A stretch of 64,000 nt of DNA, from positions 20,954 to 84,953 of the forward strand of contig JAOZFN010000012.1 of NCBI GenBank assembly GCA_027492205.1, read 5' to 3'. A program made the position numbers and the translations under genes. This DNA comes from Thermoproteota archaeon (lineage in GTDB: Archaea > Korarchaeota > Korarchaeia > Korarchaeales > Korarchaeaceae). Below, piece by piece: positions 39,754 through 46,825 of the stretch. The stretch's first letter is position 1; the number at the start of each line of letters is the position of its first letter. Under the pieces are notes generated by a model. The model was not told where the DNA came from and did not search any database. It worked only from the letters and a program-made list of their open reading frames with translations.

Positions 39754-40163
39754 AGGATCGAAGGGAGGTCAGGAGGCTGACCTGCATCGTCTGCCCCCTG
39801 GGCTGCGAGATTGAGGTTCTGCTGGACCGCGGCCCGGGCGGAGATGTGAGGGTGCTCGAGGTTGAGGGGGCCGCTTGCCCCAGGGGGAGGGAGTGGGCCG
39901 CTCGGGAGGTGACAGACCCCAAGAGGGTCGTGATCACCGTGGTGCCGGTGAGGGGCGGAGACCCGCCGACCGTGAGCGTGAAGACGGACAGGCCGATCCC
40001 CAAGTCCAGGATCCCGGAGTTCATGAGGGCCCTGGCCGGGCTGGAGGTGGAGGCGCCCGTGAGGGTGGGTCAGGTCCTCGCCAGTGGGGTGCTCGACCTG
40101 GCGAACGTGGTGGCGACCAGGGAGTCAAGATCGATGGGGAGAAGTCTCGGAGAGAGGCCGTGA
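39750..40163 (+). CDS. DUF1667 Cys-rich protein
   Basis: TCIVCPLGC...CPRG, SVKTDRPIPK. Confidence 0.85.
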   Translation: MKDRREVRRLTCIVCPLGCEIEVLLDRGPGGDVRVLEVEGAACPRGREWAAREVTDPKRVVITVVPVRGGDPPTVSVKTDRPIPKSRIPEFMRALAGLEVEAPVRVGQVLASGVLDLANVVATRESRSMGRSLGERP

Positions 40164-40343
40164 GGTCCCCTGCGGCCTACCACCTACCCTACCCCACGAA
40201 CGGGGAACCGGGAGTATGGGGATCACGATTCCCGATATAGGGGAAGTAGCCCAGGCCGGATGGGCATCCGTGCTCTGGAGGCCCCCTCCCGCCATATCCA
40301 GACAAGGGTTCAACGCGTCGGCGGTCTTCGGCGTCTCAGTGAG

Positions 40344-40363
40344 CACGTCAGTACGAACCTGCG
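40344..40363 (+). promoter_or_regulatory. Conserved upstream box, copy 1 (precursor 1)
   Basis: CACGTCAGTACGAACCTGCG; 18/20 identical to 40618-40637; ends 55 nt before ATG 40418. Confidence 0.6.
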
Positions 40364-40417
40364 AGAAACCGTGTTATCAACGGGGGAGGATCCCCGCGCA
40401 GGTCCGGGTGGTTGAGC

Positions 40418-40534
40418 ATGGCCGTACTCTCCGCGTTCTTCGGGCTCGGCGCGGAGGACCTCAGAGCCTCCGTGACCGTCGCATCCTGCTCGGCCTGCTG
40501 CCTGGCGGGCGGAGGGGGGACCCTCATCGCCTAG
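40418..40534 (+). CDS. Putative RiPP precursor peptide 1 (38 aa: MAVLSAFFGLGAEDLRASVTVASCSACCLAGGGGTLIA)
   Basis: Manual translation; GGTGG SD; paralog of 40692..40811; T-tract downstream. Confidence 0.75.
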   Translation: MAVLSAFFGLGAEDLRASVTVASCSACCLAGGGGTLIA

Positions 40535-40617
40535 GCCCCCCACCTGCCACTTTTTTCTCGATAAATCCGCTTTTTTCAGCCAATAGAGTAAGATCCGACT
40601 ATGTATGGATATGTTAT

Positions 40618-40637
40618 CACCTCAGTACGAATCTGCG
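40618..40637 (+). promoter_or_regulatory. Conserved upstream box, copy 2 (precursor 2)
   Basis: CACCTCAGTACGAATCTGCG; ends 55 nt before ATG 40692; followed by TTTTTA. Confidence 0.6.
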
Positions 40638-40691
40638 GATCATGATTTTTACTTCATACTGGCCGGAGCCTCAGCCCAAGGGGTGAGGTGT

Positions 40692-40811
40692 ATGGCGAGC
40701 GTGCTGGGCGAGTGGAGGGATGTGAGCGCCGCCGACATCGGCGACGGCGTGACGGCCTGGCCTTGCGCCTTCTGCTGCCTCCTGGCGGGAGGGGGCACCC
40801 TAATCACCTGA
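40692..40811 (+). CDS. Putative RiPP precursor peptide 2 (39 aa: MASVLGEWRDVSAADIGDGVTAWPCAFCCLLAGGGTLIT)
   Basis: GGTGAGGTG SD; immediately upstream of radical SAM gene; T-tract downstream. Confidence 0.8.
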   Translation: MASVLGEWRDVSAADIGDGVTAWPCAFCCLLAGGGTLIT

Positions 40812-40848
40812 GGGTCCCTCTCTCCTCATTTTTTGGGCGTGAACGGGG

Positions 40849-42257
40849 GTGTTCGGCGTGTCTAGGCCGGTCCTGAAGCCATTCGTCGGGATCAGGAGAG
40901 AGGATTTCGGGGTGATCCTCTACAGAGGAGGCTCCGACCAGATTCAGGCGGTCCACCCAGTCGCCGCGTACGTGCTCACCCTCATGGACGGGAGGAGGAC
41001 TTTGAGGGAGATCTCAGAGGCCTTGGCGAGGGAGCTCGGCAGGGGCGTTGGGGACGCCACGGAGATAGTCGAGGTCGTGCTGGACAGGTACGCCGACTAC
41101 GTCGACCTCGAGGGCTCCCACGTGAAGGACTTGCCGAGCCCGGAGGAGCTGCTCGAAGGAGTACCTGCTGAGATCCCCCCGGAGGAGGCCCTCCACGGCA
41201 GGCTCAGCGCCCCGACGGGCTTCGGCTACATCGTGACCCACGCCTGCCCCAACAGGTGCAGGTACTGCTACGCCGCCGCCTGGAGGAGGGCGAGGCTCGA
41301 GGACGACCTCGTTCCGCTGGACGTCATCCTCAGGACCGTGGACGAGGCGGCGGATGTCGGGGTCAAGACGATCCTGATGACCGGCGGCGAGCCGTTCATG
41401 AGGCCCGACCTGGTGGACATAGCCGAGAGGGCCCTGAAGAGGGACATCTTCGTCTACATACCAACCAAGTCGCTGATAACGGAAGAGAAGGCCAGGAGGC
41501 TCAGCGAGGCCGGCTTGGGCTGGATCCAGGTGAGCATAGACTCGCCAAATCCGGAGACCGAGGACTTCCTCGTGGGGCCCGGGGCCCACGCGAGGCTGAC
41601 GACCACGGTCAGGAACCTGGTCAGGCACGGGATCGACGTGAGGGTCAACTCCGTCGTCACCTCGTACAACGTCGGGGAGGTTCCGAGGCTGATCGAGTGG
41701 CTCTACGAGATGGGGGTCAGCAGGATCTCCCTCTCACCGTATCAGTCCCCCCACGACAGGGTCGACGACGACCTCTTCCCCTCGGTGGGGGACTACGCCT
41801 GGCTGCTGGACAGGATCAAGGAGCTGCCGAGGCACCTGAGGGACGCGCTCGACCCGGCCGGAATACGGGCGATAGAGAACGCCGTGAGGGTCAACGAAGA
41901 CGAGCTGGAGGATGTGGTGGCCCTGAGAAAGTGCTCCGCGGGAAGGAGTTCCCTCGTCATACTGCCGGACGCAGGGTTTCGTTCTGCGAGAGGGTGGCGC
42001 TGGACGAGAGGTTCGTCGTGGGAGACCTGAGGAAGCAGTCTCTCATGGATATATGGAGGTCGGAGAGGCTGGAGAGGCTGGTGTATCCACCGAGGGAGCT
42101 GTTCTCCGGCACGGCGTGCCACGACTGCCCCGTCTTCGACGAGTGCACCAGGCTGGGGAAGAGGTGCTACGTGAGGGCCATGGACGCCTACGGGGAGCCC
42201 TTCGCCCCGGACCCGATATGCCCGGCCGCGCCGCGGGTGGAGGGCAGGTTCGTGTGA
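40849..42257 (+). CDS. PqqD/RRE-radical SAM-SPASM peptide maturase (1-nt frameshift at about 41971)
   Basis: N-terminal LMDGRRTLREI PqqD-like helix; CPNRCRYC; TGGEP; SID; SPASM CSAG...PD(G)RVSFC...GDL...IW...CHDC..FDEC...C...DPIC split over two frames. Confidence 0.88.
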
Positions 42258-42263
42258 CGGGGG

Positions 42264-43256
42264 GTGGGTGAGGTGGCGTCGGGCGTCGCGCGCGACGCGG
42301 TGATCGCCGAGAACCTGGTCAAGTACTACGGAGACTTCAAGGCGCTCGACGGCGTCTCTCTGAGGGTCGAGAGGGGAGAGGTCGTGGCCCTGCTGGGCCC
42401 CAACGGGGCTGGGAAGACCACCACCATCGGCATACTCTGCGGCCTCATGTCCGCGGACGCCGGCAGGGCCTTCGTCCTCGGGGTCCCGTCGACCGACAAG
42501 GATGGGGTGAGCAGGCTGATCTCCTACGCCCCGCAGGAGACGGCCCTTGACTACCTGATGAGCGTGGAGGACAACCTGAGGTTCATCGGCTGGCTGAGGG
42601 GGCTTAGGGGCGGGCGGCTCAGGGAGCGGATCGAGCGGGCACTGAGAGAGTTCGGCCTCCTCGAGAAGAGGGGGGTCCCGGTCATAGCCCTCTCGGGTGG
42701 GCTGATGAGGAGGGTCCAGCTGGCCGGGGCCCTCATGCTGGAGCGGGAGGTGCTGGTGCTGGACGAGCCCACCCTCGGGCTTGACCCCATGGGCAAGATG
42801 ACGGTCTGGCAGATGGTCAGGGAGAGGGCCAGGAGGGGGGCGGCCGTGCTGGTCGCCACCAACGACATGCACGAGGCCGAGGTGCTCGCGGACAGGATAG
42901 CCTTCCTAAACAGGGGCAGGATCGTCGCCTTCGACACGGCCGACAGGCTCAAGGCCCTGTCCGGTAGCTCCTACCTGAGGCTGCGGCTGGAGCCCGGCTG
43001 GGAAGACCTGGTCAGTCCGCCCCGGGGGTCGAGGGTCCTCGGGGACGGGTGGATCGAGGTCGAGTACCGCGATCCGGGGGAGGTGGCCGAGATCGTGGCG
43101 TCGCTCTCCGGCGCCAGGATCCTCGACATGAGGCTGAGGGGGCCCACCCTGGACGACGTGTTCAGGAAGCTGGCGACCGAGTCGGAGGCGGTTCCAGAGG
43201 GCGGCGGGGCGGGCGTGAGGGTGGTGGCCGAGGTCCAGCCACAGGCCGGGGGGTGA
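42264..43256 (+). CDS. ABC exporter ATP-binding protein
   Basis: GPNGAGKTT, LSGG, LDEPT, PTLDDVF. Confidence 0.9.
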   Translation: MGEVASGVARDAVIAENLVKYYGDFKALDGVSLRVERGEVVALLGPNGAGKTTTIGILCGLMSADAGRAFVLGVPSTDKDGVSRLISYAPQETALDYLMSVEDNLRFIGWLRGLRGGRLRERIERALREFGLLEKRGVPVIALSGGLMRRVQLAGALMLEREVLVLDEPTLGLDPMGKMTVWQMVRERARRGAAVLVATNDMHEAEVLADRIAFLNRGRIVAFDTADRLKALSGSSYLRLRLEPGWEDLVSPPRGSRVLGDGWIEVEYRDPGEVAEIVASLSGARILDMRLRGPTLDDVFRKLATESEAVPEGGGAGVRVVAEVQPQAGG

Positions 43257-43260
43257 TGCC

Positions 43261-44007
43261 GTGCTCGCGCCTCTCATCTGGAGGGAGTTCAAGATTCACT
43301 CCAGCAAGGCCCTGGCCCTGAACCACCTGCTCGGCCCCACCTCCTACCTGGTGTTCTTGGGGCTCAGCATATCCTTCAACTTCGGGACCGTGCCCTACCA
43401 AGGCATGGCGGTGAGCTACCTGCACTTCATAATCCCCGGGCTCATAGCGATCCAGACCTACCAGCTCTTCGCCACGACCTTCTCGCTCACCAGGCTCGAC
43501 ATCTCCACCAAGATGATCACGCTGATCATGACCTCCACCAGCTTCGTGAACTACATGGTCGCGAAGATAGCCTTCGGCATGCTCGTCTCGCTCGCGACGT
43601 CGGCGTACCTCCTAGGGCTGGGCTGGGTCATCGCCGGCCCCACGGAGGTCACGCTCTCGGGGCTCCTCACGATGGTCGCGGGGATAGCGCTGGGGGACCT
43701 GCTGTTCTTCTCACTCGGGCTGCTCATGGGCCTCAAGATAAGGAGGGAGGACGTGAGAGACGCCATCTTCGCCCTGGCGGGAACGCCGGCGCTCTTCTCC
43801 AGCACGGCCTTCTACCCCATGGACAGGGTGCCGGCGCCCCTCCGGCTGGTGGCCAGGCTGAACCCCATATCCCACATAGCAGACATCGTGAGGGCTGGCT
43901 ACCTGAACGCGAGCCCCGACCCGCTGACCTGCCTCCTGCTCGCGGCCTACGTGGCCGCCGCCGCGGGCGTCACGTACAGGGCCGTGAGGCGGTTCGTCGT
44001 CAAGTGA
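43261..44007 (+). CDS. ABC-2 exporter permease
   Basis: YLHFIIPG, FSSTAFYP, LNPISH; 6 TM helices. Confidence 0.88.
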   Translation: MLAPLIWREFKIHSSKALALNHLLGPTSYLVFLGLSISFNFGTVPYQGMAVSYLHFIIPGLIAIQTYQLFATTFSLTRLDISTKMITLIMTSTSFVNYMVAKIAFGMLVSLATSAYLLGLGWVIAGPTEVTLSGLLTMVAGIALGDLLFFSLGLLMGLKIRREDVRDAIFALAGTPALFSSTAFYPMDRVPAPLRLVARLNPISHIADIVRAGYLNASPDPLTCLLLAAYVAAAAGVTYRAVRRFVVK

Positions 44008-44036: not shown

Positions 44037-44054
44037 CAATCAATCGATTGATTG
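44037..44054. promoter_or_regulatory. Perfect 18-bp palindrome (operator candidate)
   Basis: CAATCAATCGATTGATTG directly after TTTTATTT box, overlapping the start of 44048..45100. Confidence 0.6.
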
Positions 44055-45100
44055 TGCCGGGTGGGGACGACCTCAGGGACGCCGGGAGGATAGTGAGGCA
44101 CCTTCTGTTCAACAGCCTCGATGTGGAGTCCCTGAGCATCCGGGGAATGGAGAGGGCGCTGGGAATACCCTTCTCCAGGCTCAGGCGACTCCTCAGGTGG
44201 CTCCAGAGTGAGGGAATAGTCGTGGGGTATCAGGTGGGCACCTCGATGGCCTTCAGGGTCTTAGACCTGGAGAGGGCCGTTCACCTCGGCCTGGTGAGCC
44301 TGTCCACGGAGGACCTGGAGAGGGCCGTATACGGCTCCATGGCGCTGCCGGCCTCGGTCAGGGGCATGGTGCGCGACGACCTCACCCTCAAGTTCCTGCC
44401 AGCGTCCAGCGACCTGCCGGGGCCCTACCTCGCGGCGATAGGGGACCTGAGGAGGAGGTGGGACCTACTCTATCAGGCGGCCAGGAGGGCCTTCACGGGC
44501 GGGGACGGGGAGAAGGTGCGGCAGACGGGCCCAGGGGGGGCCGACGGCATGGAGGCCGGCCTGAGGCTCCTGGGGAGGGATTTCGTGTCCAAGGTGGGCC
44601 TCATCCCCCTCCTGTACCTCGTGGCCGTCAGGCAGATCAAGGTCCCTGTGGAGGTCGAGCTTGACGAGGACGACATAGAGGGCATGCTGCACAGGCTCAG
44701 GGTCGAAGCCGGCGTCGGGGAGGAGGAGGTGAGGCTCCTGAGGTACTTCCCCTCCCTGGACCCCATAGCCCTGTTCGCGAGGGACGTGGTCATGGAGCTC
44801 GGGGTTCCCGAGGAGGTCAGCGAGGAGGAGCTCAGAGGGGCTGTCTCCAGGGTGGCGGAGAAGTACCTCCGCCTCCTGCTGAAGTTCTCCCGCGGGAGGC
44901 ACCCGTCCAGGGAGGCCAGGCTCGTGGAGGCGCTGACCCTCAGGCACGGGGCCCTGTTCGGCATACTGACCGGGGCCCCGGCGGATCTCGTGAGGGAGTG
45001 CCTCTCCAGGGCGAGCGAGCTGGAGGAGGGGTCGGACCCATGGGAGGGGAGGGGCGGGTTGAGGTCGATGGGGAGGTGTGGGGATGCTCGAGCTGGCTGA
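44048..45100 (+). CDS. Putative transcriptional regulator with N-terminal wHTH
   Basis: LSIRGMERALGIPFSRLRRLLRWLQSEGIV...VG. Confidence 0.6.
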   Translation: MIVPGGDDLRDAGRIVRHLLFNSLDVESLSIRGMERALGIPFSRLRRLLRWLQSEGIVVGYQVGTSMAFRVLDLERAVHLGLVSLSTEDLERAVYGSMALPASVRGMVRDDLTLKFLPASSDLPGPYLAAIGDLRRRWDLLYQAARRAFTGGDGEKVRQTGPGGADGMEAGLRLLGRDFVSKVGLIPLLYLVAVRQIKVPVEVELDEDDIEGMLHRLRVEAGVGEEEVRLLRYFPSLDPIALFARDVVMELGVPEEVSEEELRGAVSRVAEKYLRLLLKFSRGRHPSREARLVEALTLRHGALFGILTGAPADLVRECLSRASELEEGSDPWEGRGGLRSMGRCGDARAG

Positions 45101-45422
45101 ACCTCCCGTCGCGGATGCCGAGGCCGTGTTCTCCCTCAGGAGGAGTAGGGTCAGGAGGGAGGTCCTCTCCTTCCTAGCCAGGATACACCCGAGGGCCTCC
45201 TACCCCAGCGAGATAGCCAAGGCGATAAACGCCAGGGCTGACCAGGTCCTCGCGGCGCTGAGGGGCTACGGGACCAGGTACAGGAGGGACATATCCCTCC
45301 TCGGGCTCGGACTCGTGAGGGAGGTCGGGAGGGGACCCAAGCTCACCCTCTACGCCGCCACCGAGAAGGGGGTCAGGGTGGTCGCCTACCTGAGCATGGT
45401 CGAGTACAACCTCTCCCAGTGA
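45084..45422 (+). CDS. EarA-like (DUF1495/COG3373) winged-helix transcription regulator
   Basis: SLRRSRVRREVL...P.ASY.SEI...V..AL.G.G.RY...SL..LGLV...T.KG resembles the EarA family as recalled. Confidence 0.7.
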   Translation: MLELAEPPVADAEAVFSLRRSRVRREVLSFLARIHPRASYPSEIAKAINARADQVLAALRGYGTRYRRDISLLGLGLVREVGRGPKLTLYAATEKGVRVVAYLSMVEYNLSQ

Positions 45423-45691
45423 GGGCCGCCCGAAAGGGCCGACGAAGTACATCCAGCGTCCACACACGGCTCAGTTCTTCTCCACTCGGCTTTCTCGCCG
45501 CCGTCCTAGGGCTGACTCGGCCCTCCGCCCAGCCGCGTGCGCCTCACAGCGCGGCTCAGGGTTACTCACGGGCCACGAGCCCGCGCGCGGCCGGGCCAGG
45601 ATCTCAAGAGGGCCCGAGGGGAGCGAGAGGCAGCGGCGCCGCCCTTATAACAGGGGGGCGGGAGGGCGTCGCCTGTCACCGGTCTAGGGAG

Positions 45692-46825
45692 ATGGCTTGG
45701 ATGAGGGTTGGCCTGAAGGAACTCCTCCTCGGCGCGGCTTCGGCGCTCGTCCTCGTTGGTGTGCTCGCCTGCTCACTGCTGTGCATCCCGTGGCACCTGC
45801 TGCCGGACTCTGAGGCCTTGCCCGCCGTTCTGGGCCTAGCGGCAGCCCTCGGCGCGGCCGCCGCGGGGAGGGCCCGCGGCGGGGTCAGGGTGGCCGCCTG
45901 GCTGGCTGCGGTCGCCCTGGCCGCGCTCTCACTCGCCGCGGTCGGCTCGGCGCTCGGGTTCAGGGTGGTCCCGAACTCGCCGTACGCGTCCGTGACCCTC
46001 GCGAACGTGCCCTGCGACGGTCCCCTGATCCTGAACGTGACGGCGATACCGTTCCACGTCCACGTCCAGCCCTGGGGTGGTGAGGACGTGTCTGCGGTGA
46101 TCGAGGCCCCCTCAAACCTGGTCGAGGAGGTGGAGAGGGGCGTTACCATCTCGCACGCCGTGGACCCATCCGACGGCACCCTCCACCTGCGGATCCAGAG
46201 CGAGTACAGGAGGCCCATCGCGATCGGGTGGCTCGCCCTCTCCCCGCCCGAGCTGACGCTCAGGGTGATGGTTCCCTGGGCTGGCGGCTGCAGGGTGCTG
46301 CGGGCGCACGTCTACACCGTGAGCGGAGACGTGGCCGTGCGTGTGGACGTCGATCGGTTATCCGTCCAGAGCGTCCACGGGAGCCTGAACCTCTCGGGGG
46401 ATTTCGGGGTCCTGGAGGCCGAGACCGTCAGCGGCGGCGTCTTCCTGAGCGGAGGGGTGCTGCGCGGCGGGACCGTGAGGTCGACCAGCGGCGACGTAAG
46501 GGGAGAGATCCGGGCCGCTGGAGCTCTCGGCCCAGCGGGAGCAGGCGGCACCCTCCACCTGAGCACGACGAGCGGGGACATAGAGGTCGAGATCTCGAGG
46601 GGAGAGGACGTCCACCTGGAGATCTACGCCGGCACGACGGGCGGGCGCGCGACCCTGATGGAGGCCGGTGGCGGCTCGGGAGGCGGCCTCGACGTCGCGG
46701 TCATCTCCGAGGGTGAGGTCAGGGGGAGCGTCGGGCCCCCCGGGGGACGAGAGTTCAGGCTCGTGGCCGAGACAACCAGCGGCGACGTCACCATAAGGTA
46801 CGCCGGGGTCTGGCGGGCCGGGTAG
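45692..46825 (+). CDS. Membrane protein with DUF4097 beta-strand repeats
   Basis: Three N-terminal TM helices; repeated TVSGD/STSGD/TTSGD motifs; TTATAA box upstream. Confidence 0.7.
   Translation: MAWMRVGLKELLLGAASALVLVGVLACSLLCIPWHLLPDSEALPAVLGLAAALGAAAAGRARGGVRVAAWLAAVALAALSLAAVGSALGFRVVPNSPYASVTLANVPCDGPLILNVTAIPFHVHVQPWGGEDVSAVIEAPSNLVEEVERGVTISHAVDPSDGTLHLRIQSEYRRPIAIGWLALSPPELTLRVMVPWAGGCRVLRAHVYTVSGDVAVRVDVDRLSVQSVHGSLNLSGDFGVLEAETVSGGVFLSGGVLRGGTVRSTSGDVRGEIRAAGALGPAGAGGTLHLSTTSGDIEVEISRGEDVHLEIYAGTTGGRATLMEAGGGSGGGLDVAVISEGEVRGSVGPPGGREFRLVAETTSGDVTIRYAGVWRAG

Follow-up and report, generated by a model that had tools for sequence, protein, structure and literature searches.

What is made from two tandem genes for Cys-rich peptides of 38 and 39 amino acids (aa) that lie directly in front of a radical S-adenosylmethionine (SAM) enzyme and an ATP-binding cassette (ABC) transporter in a korarchaeal genome? 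The question is raised by a stretch of 64,000 nucleotides (nt) from a Thermoproteota archaeon of the Korarchaeaceae (assembly GCA_027492205.1, contig JAOZFN010000012.1, positions 20,954 to 84,953 of the forward strand), referred to here as the window, which has a G+C content of 65%. The locus is probably a gene cluster for a peptide that is made by the ribosome and modified after translation (RiPP), comprising twin precursors, a maturase that joins a RiPP recognition element (RRE) to radical SAM and SPASM domains, and an ABC-2 exporter, with thioether formation as the most likely chemistry. As read from the sequence between 40100 and 44300 and from the list of open reading frames (ORFs), the five genes are closely spaced and all on the + strand:

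40418..40534, + strand: pepA, a 38-aa precursor peptide with a leader of ~23 aa and a core of Cys-x-x-Cys-Cys, then a Gly run, Thr and a hydrophobic tail
40692..40811, + strand: pepB, a 39-aa paralogous precursor peptide, from the ORF listing and a search of the assembly
40849..41971, + strand: first frame of the maturase, with an RRE/PqqD-like region (~40885-41088), CxxxCxxC (41245-41268), a bridging region and the first SPASM Cys (41932-41934)
41972..42257, + strand: second frame of the maturase after a 1-nt deletion, with the remaining SPASM region and six of its seven conserved Cys (SPASM 32.7 bits in 41955-42254)
42264..43256, + strand: ABC transporter ATPase, DrrA-like (ABC_tran 98.8 bits)
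43261..44007, + strand: ABC-2 type permease (ABC2_membrane 35.2 bits)

An earlier description of this DNA, made without database searches and called here the sequence-only reading, had proposed two paralogous short ORFs followed by a PqqD-like, CxxxCxxC and SPASM enzyme and an ABC-2 exporter. The two ORFs and their translations were reproduced in the sequence and in the ORF listing, where pepA (ATG at 40418) is called as 40 aa from a TTG at 40412 and pepB forms the final 39 codons of a 68-aa call from an ATG at 40605. Gene order and Pfam domains likewise agree for the genes that follow. Within the maturase, Pfam recognizes Radical_SAM (99.7 bits), Fer4_12 and, in the second frame only, SPASM, which rises to 49.3 bits in P0001, the intact orthologue of sister genome G001. 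Both the CxxxCxxC motif (C133/C137/C140) and the seven SPASM Cys are invariant in 22 homologues; the intact orthologues hold all seven, and in the window the SPASM domain is split.

The AlphaFold2 model of the intact enzyme has a predicted local distance difference test score (pLDDT) of 88.0 and a predicted template modeling score (pTM) of 0.87, and a radical SAM core is identified by motif, Pfam score and confident model alike. In the same model, the N-terminal unit consists of strands 13-18, 21-26 and 32-35 and helices 37-45, 52-63 and 67-80. A PqqD-like winged-helix RRE is predicted here, despite a borderline hidden Markov model (HMM) score, because the model shows the RRE layout and because a full-length structural alignment with SuiB includes the N-terminal region. 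That alignment is the top Foldseek match in the PDB (leader-bound SuiB, 5v1t_A; E 3e-17, TM 0.64/0.67, 469 columns, 17-18% identity), followed by PqqE, CteB (5wgg_A, E 1.8e-15), SkfB, BlsE and anSME; PqqE is the sixth-best match, and CteB and SkfB are within the ten best. Judged from the model, the best fold matches are thus full-length RRE-radical SAM-SPASM peptide maturases. A sequence search of the PDB with the enzyme gave generic radical SAM matches only. Assignment to a named enzyme family was tried and rejected: no NCBIfam cut-off was reached by the window's fragments, by the intact P0001 and P0002, or by six homologues from bacteria and Methanothrix, and the best scores of the intact enzyme (MftC 103.1 against a cut-off of 265, NirJ2, PqqE 94.8 against 381, StsB 93.6 against 625) were all far under threshold. 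An exhaustive representative search returned 365 proteins at E <= 1e-30, mostly of 440-490 aa and aligned end to end, with a best identity of 42%; by these searches the enzyme family is sizeable and uncurated.

The cognate precursor gene adjoins the enzyme and is conserved with it. Around enzyme homologues, 80 loci were fetched from one-genome-per-species contigs, and small same-strand ORFs with the pattern CxxCC-x(3-9)-GG/GT were found directly 5' of the enzyme in nine of them (L029, which is G001 and has two copies, L030, L033, L079, L083, L089, L090, L098 and L102). L030 is an unclassified bacterial metagenome-assembled genome (MAG) of 33% G+C, the peptide of L033 is assigned by NCBI to a candidate division WOR-3 bacterium, and the remaining six are Bacteroidota, in which the core sits behind a Gly-Gly leader; together the host genomes span 32% to 65% G+C. 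The strict motif gave no match among ORFs of up to 120 aa in all six frames of 354,446 nt from 80 unrelated radical SAM-SPASM metagenome loci, mostly distant ones taken from a contig scan with generic patterns. One locus returned by that contig scan (L108) carries a related GG-leader peptide in which CxxCC and the Gly run stand farther apart.

The sequence-only reading would have been undermined if close homologues of the enzyme lacked neighboring CxxCC peptides; the nearest homologues with context, L030 and L033, carry them. Two of its details fared less well. It had described a conserved GGGTLI acceptor tail, and only GG/GT after the Cys triad is common to the family. Since Gly-Thr forms the end of the L030 peptide, the family can do without the korarchaeal Leu-Ile-Thr/Ala tail, and the shared acceptor candidates, as judged from the aligned peptides, are the residues between the Cys triad and Gly-Gly/Gly-Thr. 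It had also presented the system as specifically archaeal, and the same core is found in bacteria. Twin peptides are not a family trait, since L030 and L033 each carry a single precursor.

More distant members of the family keep the Cys and vary the rest. In the second korarchaeal genus, g2, whose enzyme is 34-35% identical, a different but related peptide of 44-51 aa lies directly 5', and Thr-Asp-Val-Cys-Pro-Val-Ala-Cys and a hydrophobic Lys-Tyr/Phe tail are invariant in six variant clusters. The enzyme tree comprises 75 members; it omits L031, L045 and L074 for being shorter than 430 aa, L059 and L108 because the ORF picked was wrong or too long, and L029 because it is G001 itself. It unites the window's family with L030 and L033 (both of the CxxCC type), the two g2 korarchaeal enzymes and L041, a long-branched Eubacteriales sequence whose upstream DNA ends at the contig edge, with a support of 99 in the Shimodaira-Hasegawa-like approximate likelihood-ratio test (SH-aLRT). 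Every precursor in this clade keeps at least two Cys. Nearly all other members of the wider enzyme family have a Cys-rich small ORF 5', among them Methanothrix and Paenibacillus with twin precursors carrying several CxxxC repeats. The automatic labels behind this statement are crude: 'otherCys' and 'none' were assigned by a rule that asks for at least two Cys within the final 40 residues of an ORF whose end is less than 450 nt 5', and they include false calls; visual checking covered only the CxxCC and g2 labels. As a separate observation, a well-supported sister clade of Methanothrix (L034, L040), Paenibacillus (L035, L037, L039, L042) and a Syntrophobacteraceae MAG has twin 60-70-aa precursors rich in CxxxC, which is another archaeal-bacterial sharing of an uncurated radical SAM RiPP family.

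Turning to the exporter, an ABC ATPase is paired with an ABC-2 membrane protein. The ATPase scores 227 bits against the drrA model TIGR01188 (cut-off 312) and the permease 45.9 bits against the drrB model (cut-off 223); since neither subfamily cut-off is reached, the pair is best described from its sequence as DrrAB-like and not as a DrrAB member. The order in bacterial locus L030 is that of the window, namely peptide, enzyme, ABC ATPase and ABC-2 permease, with identities of 35-38% for the enzyme, 37% over 299 aa for the ATPase and 35% over 218 aa for the permease. All three proteins have diverged to a similar degree, in genomes of 33% and 65% G+C, which speaks for four genes that move and function as a unit and for an ancient date of any exchange between the domains. 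The proposal of an archaeal RiPP cluster with twin precursors, radical SAM enzyme and exporter therefore stands as to architecture, domains and core conservation; its core and, in one bacterium, its whole cassette are shared with bacteria, and its maturase is frameshifted here. Just 5' of the L030 cassette, on the - strand at 598-1878, lies a gene for a 426-aa protein with HTH_28/HTH_32 domains typical of transposases, a neighbor consistent with mobility of the cassette. Bacteroidota loci have a different companion. In all four scanned, the enzyme is followed by a CarboxypepD_reg and OMP_b-brl_3 outer-membrane barrel resembling TonB receptors (L079 4465-6783; L098 4423-6723; L089 2784-5105; L102 4038-6464), and tblastn places a barrel homologue within the fetched flanks of 29 of 78 loci, whatever the peptide type. 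The barrel hints at uptake or outer-membrane passage of the product.

The precursors themselves behave as genes. Searched in six frames against the complete 1.94-Mb assembly, pepA gave three matches at E <= 10, which are pepA itself, pepB (E 1.7e-4, 46% identity) and a chance-level match in a 262-aa frame (E 0.455). Compared with G001, pepA shows one synonymous and one Thr-to-Ala change and pepB three differences, all synonymous; divergence is 1.7-2.5% in the peptide ORFs as against 6.4% in the spacer between them, and the indels all fall outside pepA and pepB and would break an overlapping 200-aa frame at 40084-40686. A peptide profile run against 5.8 billion proteins returned seven clusters, and the variants alter the leader, not the core: P0160, a pepB variant, has four leader substitutions and an identical core from Val-Thr onward; P0163, a pepA variant, has seven leader substitutions and an identical 15-residue core; P0162 and two bacterial peptide families also keep the core while the leader drifts. 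No named precursor family was found for eight peptides searched against Pfam and NCBIfam. Because of the paralogy, the divergence pattern, the leader-only variants, the recurrence of the core beside homologous enzymes and the absence of motif matches in the control, pepA and pepB are, on this comparative evidence, regarded as real precursor genes.

How the product would be made can be proposed from these parts, and their arrangement follows the usual scheme of RRE-dependent RiPP maturation. The tandem-duplicated genes would yield precursors of 38-39 aa in which a variable N-terminal leader precedes an invariant core of Cys-x-x-Cys-Cys, Gly run and Thr. The leader would be bound by the N-terminal winged-helix RRE of the radical SAM/SPASM enzyme, and the enzyme would modify the Cys-containing core using its SAM cluster and two auxiliary clusters. 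In the most likely reaction, Cys sulfurs would be linked to carbons of downstream residues as sactionine- or ranthionine-type thioethers, giving a small rigid peptide that the DrrAB-like ABC-2 transporter may export, or against which it may protect the producer. Formation of Cys-to-carbon thioethers is the best guess because Cys is the sole constant across the precursors of the family and because SPASM has seven Cys, as in CteB, Tte1186, QhpD and CrpC. According to the portions of two papers that were available, the seven-Cys pattern belongs to these thioether-forming enzymes, an open iron site can bind a substrate cysteine, and thioether formation is the commonest outcome for RRE-radical SAM-SPASM enzymes with Cys-rich substrates (PMC10352776; PMC13692751). 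By analogy with known systems, the topology of the thioethers might be similar, and the two peptides could act as a two-component archaeocin with antimicrobial activity, as the sequence-only reading had suggested. When the intact enzyme was modeled in complex with pepB, three clusters and SAM, the median interaction prediction score from aligned errors (ipSAE) was 0.34 (0.48, 0.34 and 0.33) as compared with 0.01 for the best control, with at least 59% of contacts common between runs and a partner pLDDT of at least 57. In calibration, 58 of 80 solved complexes and 2 of 110 mismatches attained the mark, with scores of 0.60 or less from just 7 of the 80, and a pass at so low a score is wrong in the majority of cases if the pairing was not already likely; the model therefore lends weak support to the pairing of enzyme and pepB. 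The pass may reflect likeness only, because leader-bound structures of SuiB and CteB exist.

Several observations weigh against a thioether-forming RiPP cluster. The N-terminal PqqD match scores 22.7-22.8 bits against a Pfam cut-off of 23.4 and reaches E <= 0.01 in just 6 of 22 family members. Curated thioether-synthase families are not reached (StsB NF045574 86-94 against 625; PapB NF047865 60 against 340, from the g2 enzyme only), and AlbA (NF012164, 57-60 against 850) and SkfB (TIGR04403, 53 against 300) are matched by bacterial relatives only; for P0001, AlbA is outside the best 25 NCBIfam matches and SkfB is not listed. Nor does the fold fix the chemistry, because SuiB, the best structural match, joins Lys to Trp through a carbon-carbon bond. 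The six Bacteroidota CxxCC enzymes form a clade of their own (support 100) elsewhere in the tree, so the CxxCC core sits in two separate parts with at least 2-3 gains or losses, and the divergence of the motif does not simply track that of the enzyme. The ABC pair adjoins the enzyme in just 3 of 78 loci (two in genus g1, and L030). A scan of 14 flanking ORFs between 35.6 and 48.6 kb turned up none with a peptidase domain, in agreement with the sequence-only reading, which had seen no leader peptidase. Finally, just one of the seven SPASM Cys comes before the break in the window's maturase, and six are cut off.

That break gives rise to the strongest rival explanation, in which the locus is a decaying relic: the 1-nt deletion would be real, the maturase dead, and the peptides no longer turned into product in this genome. 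The sequence-only reading had implied a frameshift by speaking of a repaired enzyme, and comparison with G001, a sister genome of 96.5% identity, bears this out. One G is missing at ~41970-41971; the maturase of G001 is an uninterrupted frame of 469 aa with 96% identity to the window, and that of G002 (86-87% protein identity) is open up to the contig edge. Over 13.1 kb of aligned sequence, the window and G001 differ by 19 indel runs, 12 of them single-base and five of those 12 intergenic. The relic explanation gains from the break being in mid-gene, as the sole one of the seven remaining single-base indels to lie well inside a gene (the others fall where the DAO gene ends or within the 5' portion, itself doubtful, of a DUF4097 call), and from the fact that loss occurs in the genus, where just the final third of the enzyme gene can be recognized on a short contig of G004 and G003 has no copy. 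However, both peptide genes, the exporter and the remainder of the enzyme show no damage and are 96-98% identical to G001, which has the whole gene, and a base dropped from a G-G pair is an error that MAG consensus sequences typically show as well. The cluster here is either inactive or mis-assembled at the missing base, and decay is a serious contender that nonetheless falls short of an even chance.

A second rival keeps the RiPP cluster and changes its chemistry or role. The Cys triad would be converted, for example, to a thiooxazole-type heterocycle or receive another sulfur-centered modification, and the peptide would bind metal or serve as a signal. Cys-x-x-Cys-Cys is a classic metal-binding arrangement. 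Some radical SAM/SPASM enzymes carry out other reactions on Cys, and SbtM, a 'thio(seleno)oxazole modification radical SAM maturase', is among the weak NCBIfam matches (56.7 bits for the L033 enzyme), although that score is far under the cut-off of 350 bits. The TonB-receptor-like barrel of Bacteroidota would fit uptake of a product, yet it adjoins many Bacteroidota members regardless of peptide type and is absent from the archaeal loci and from L030. Two korarchaeal winged-helix proteins with the same phyletic pattern as the enzyme, described below, would fit a regulatory circuit; on the other side, the window's cluster has no metal-handling gene. With thioethers being the commonest outcome for such enzymes with Cys-rich substrates in the cited portions of the literature (PMC13692751; PMC10352776), this alternative is rather unlikely. 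A bolder version, more doubtful still, regards the CxxCC-x(3-9)-GG/GT peptides as an undescribed RiPP family on a compact cassette that would have passed between Bacteria and Archaea. Three adjacent Cys would then give a new, tiny sulfur-bridged or heterocyclic scaffold, the korarchaeal version would be wired to two dedicated winged-helix regulators, and the exported peptide would be a cell-cell signal or a metal-sensing or metal-scavenging molecule and not a toxin. If true, it would be the first peptide-signaling or metallophore system in a deep-branching thermophilic archaeal lineage.

It is very improbable that the peptides are precursors of an intracellular redox cofactor, as in pyrroloquinoline quinone or mycofactocin synthesis, and not of an exported peptide. 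MftC and PqqE do provide the highest NCBIfam scores, and PqqE is a high-ranking structural match, but those scores are far under their cut-offs, no MftC or PqqE pathway partner genes are among the neighbors scanned, the precursors have neither the Glu/Tyr nor the C-terminal Val-Tyr features of those systems, and the ABC exporter is co-inherited with the enzyme in L030. Least credible of all is the notion that the short ORFs are chance frames in intergenic DNA of 65% G+C and that the enzyme acts on another substrate: such DNA is rich in spurious ORFs (129 of at least 30 aa in 14 kb) and the peptides belong to no Pfam or NCBIfam family, but the core is kept beside homologous enzymes in genomes of 32% to 65% G+C, the changes in pepB are silent and the variants confined to the leader, the indels spare both ORFs, the 354-kb control holds no motif match, and the contrast of 33% with 65% G+C excludes a shared-DNA artefact.

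Returning to the RiPP cluster with thioether chemistry, two further genes share the distribution of its enzyme within the phylum:

44048..45100, + strand: 350-aa protein with an N-terminal winged-helix region, a candidate regulator with no Pfam or NCBIfam family
45078..45422, + strand: 114-aa EarA-like winged-helix transcription factor (PF07381 EarA, 79.2 bits)

The phylum sample consisted of 43 species genomes (GTDB phylum), with the window's assembly as G000. The enzyme is present in seven of them at E <= 1e-40 (G000, G001, G002, G004, G005, G009 and G012), with an N-terminal fragment at a contig end in G018, and the enzyme-bearing genomes belong to two genera only. The 350-aa protein is also found in seven (G000, G001, G002, G004, G005, G009 and G018), so the two sets coincide except for G012, where the contig with the enzyme is just 3.7 kb; the other 35 genomes yielded neither gene. 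The protein is poorly modeled (pLDDT 49.8), with confidence only for residues 1-60, which form helices and a beta hairpin. Its gene is always paired with an EarA-like winged-helix gene of 107-118 aa, and in genus g2 the EarA-like homologues adjoin a 365-aa gene. Wherever there is enough flank, the pair adjoins the enzyme or the peptide, on the downstream side in g1 and in divergent orientation to the peptide in g2 (window 44048-45422; L012 7398-8817; L013 4154-5570; L021 1334-2738; family protein 350-368 aa). The two winged-helix genes are probably parts of the system, most simply its regulators. In both g2 loci with enough flank, a gene of the OsmC-like thiol peroxidase family is convergent to the 3' end of the maturase (L012 5101-5565; L013 7396-7815). 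As for the partial enzyme gene of G004, what can be recognized in locus L015 (contig C213, 1757 nt) is limited to the final third of the maturase and the beginning of the ABC ATPase, at 76% nucleotide identity to window 41828-42730. The remainder of the contig does not match the 5' part of the enzyme gene, which points either to a copy that has been rearranged or truncated or to a chimeric contig.

Signals for expression can be read around both peptide genes, and the tandem duplication covers ~70 nt of 5' DNA besides the peptide ORF:

40348..40363, + strand: 16-nt element, copy 1, ~55 nt 5' of the pepA ATG and a member of the tandem duplication
40551..40576, + strand: two T6 tracts 3' of pepA (40551-40556 and 40571-40576), seen directly in the sequence
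40622..40637, + strand: 16-nt element, copy 2, ~55 nt 5' of the pepB ATG
40809..40834, + strand: hairpin and T6 3' of pepB, with the stem at 40809-40828 followed by the T run

The 16-nt block is the best-conserved non-coding stretch between the duplicated units, and its pattern occurs exactly twice in 64 kb (40348 and 40622) with 0.04 expected and two occurrences reached in none of 100 shuffles; one base of copy 2 differs in G001 (position 40635). It is a possible promoter or operator element. Purine-rich stretches resembling a Shine-Dalgarno (SD) sequence lie 1-6 nt 5' of each ATG (GGGTGG at 40406-40411 and GGGGTGAGGTG at 40680-40690), so that an SD-like stretch and a downstream T-tract are both read at each short ORF, in line with what had been claimed. 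These were judged against the general archaeal consensus and not the host's own anti-SD, and no archaeal small-subunit (16S) rRNA was found in the 17-contig, 96%-complete G000 assembly. Oligo-T is an archaeal terminator, and the region has four terminator-like sites, compared with 1.6 +/- 1.4 in shuffles; the T tracts 3' of both peptide genes would yield an excess of precursor transcript. A sigma-70 promoter scan gave no match, as expected for an archaeon, and an AT-rich TTTTTA at ~40646-40651 may be a TATA box. The maturase has an alternative GTG start at 40858, with better SD spacing than at 40849. Beyond the cluster, the genes on its 5' side are unrelated to it (a major facilitator superfamily transporter, two FAD oxidoreductases and a DUF1667 protein). 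On its 3' side, a DUF4097 ('toastrack') membrane protein gene (window 45419-46825; L018 10660-11985) shows several indels of 1 nt and 11 nt against G001 in its first 170 nt, and the 468-aa call probably begins upstream of the true start.

Among known systems, the sactipeptide and ranthipeptide clusters (AlbA/subtilosin, SkfB, CteB/thermocellin-SCIFF and PapB/freyrasin) are closest in kind. Like the window's cluster with its maturase intact as in the sister genomes, they have an N-terminal RRE, a radical SAM core and a seven-Cys SPASM domain, a Cys-rich precursor gene directly upstream, and downstream ABC transporter genes of the type carried by the sbo-alb operon. They differ in having spaced Cys with distal acceptors or CxxxD/N repeats, whereas the window's core is a compact CxxCC triad with a Gly run; in addition, the window has very short peptides of 38-39 aa, no peptidase and a korarchaeal host, and it reaches no curated cut-off. 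The SuiB maturase of streptide shares the three-domain layout and is the best full-length structural match, but its substrate SuiA has no Cys chemistry, in contrast to the at least two Cys in every precursor of the window's enzyme clade.

The nearest archaeal precedent is CrpC of Methanococcus voltae, an RRE-radical SAM-SPASM enzyme with seven SPASM Cys that acts on a neighboring Cys-rich substrate, CrpA, and whose locus, like the window, holds a second paralogous substrate-like gene sharing the N-terminal region (PMC13692751, 2026, as far as its available portions describe). CrpA is a 28.8-kDa protein with ten 17-residue repeats as compared with a 38-aa peptide, CrpC belongs to TIGR04463, which is not among the best 25 matches of the window's enzyme, and in those portions of the paper no exporter is reported, in contrast to the window's ABC pair (PMC13692751). 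In the available portions of PMC10352776, Bacteroidales clusters with GG-leader radical SAM RiPPs are described by bioinformatics only, and none is experimentally characterized. Their enzyme family is homologous at 25-30% identity, and six Bacteroidota loci have the same CxxCC...GG core, but they carry Gly-Gly leaders and outer-membrane barrels where the window has short non-GG leaders and a DrrAB-like pair, and their CxxCC enzymes form a separate clade. No description of CxxCC core peptides or of any korarchaeal RiPP was found in a literature search to which supplements and subscription journals were external. The window's system is thus sactipeptide- or ranthipeptide-like in kind and in no curated enzyme or precursor family. 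It is less exclusive to archaea than first claimed, and it is better supported through a motif and a cassette conserved across domains.

Radical SAM RiPPs are well studied in Firmicutes and barely in archaea. The earliest biochemically characterized archaeal SPASM thioether synthase that was found dates from 2026 and has a protein substrate, according to the available portions of its report (PMC13692751). Uncharacterized radical SAM RiPP clusters number in the thousands, and without its chemistry the locus is a good lead for genome mining and not a surprise. It nevertheless offers a minimal and directly testable system, with a 38-aa substrate, one enzyme that is intact in sister genomes and one exporter. 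Although no curated family covers its core motif, the motif is kept in hosts that range from korarchaea to WOR-3-like bacteria and gut Bacteroidota. In korarchaea, the strict co-occurrence with two winged-helix proteins provides a handle on regulation or sensing. The structure of the product would show what a radical SAM-SPASM enzyme does with three near-contiguous cysteines, and whether the versions in gut Bacteroidota share the scaffold.

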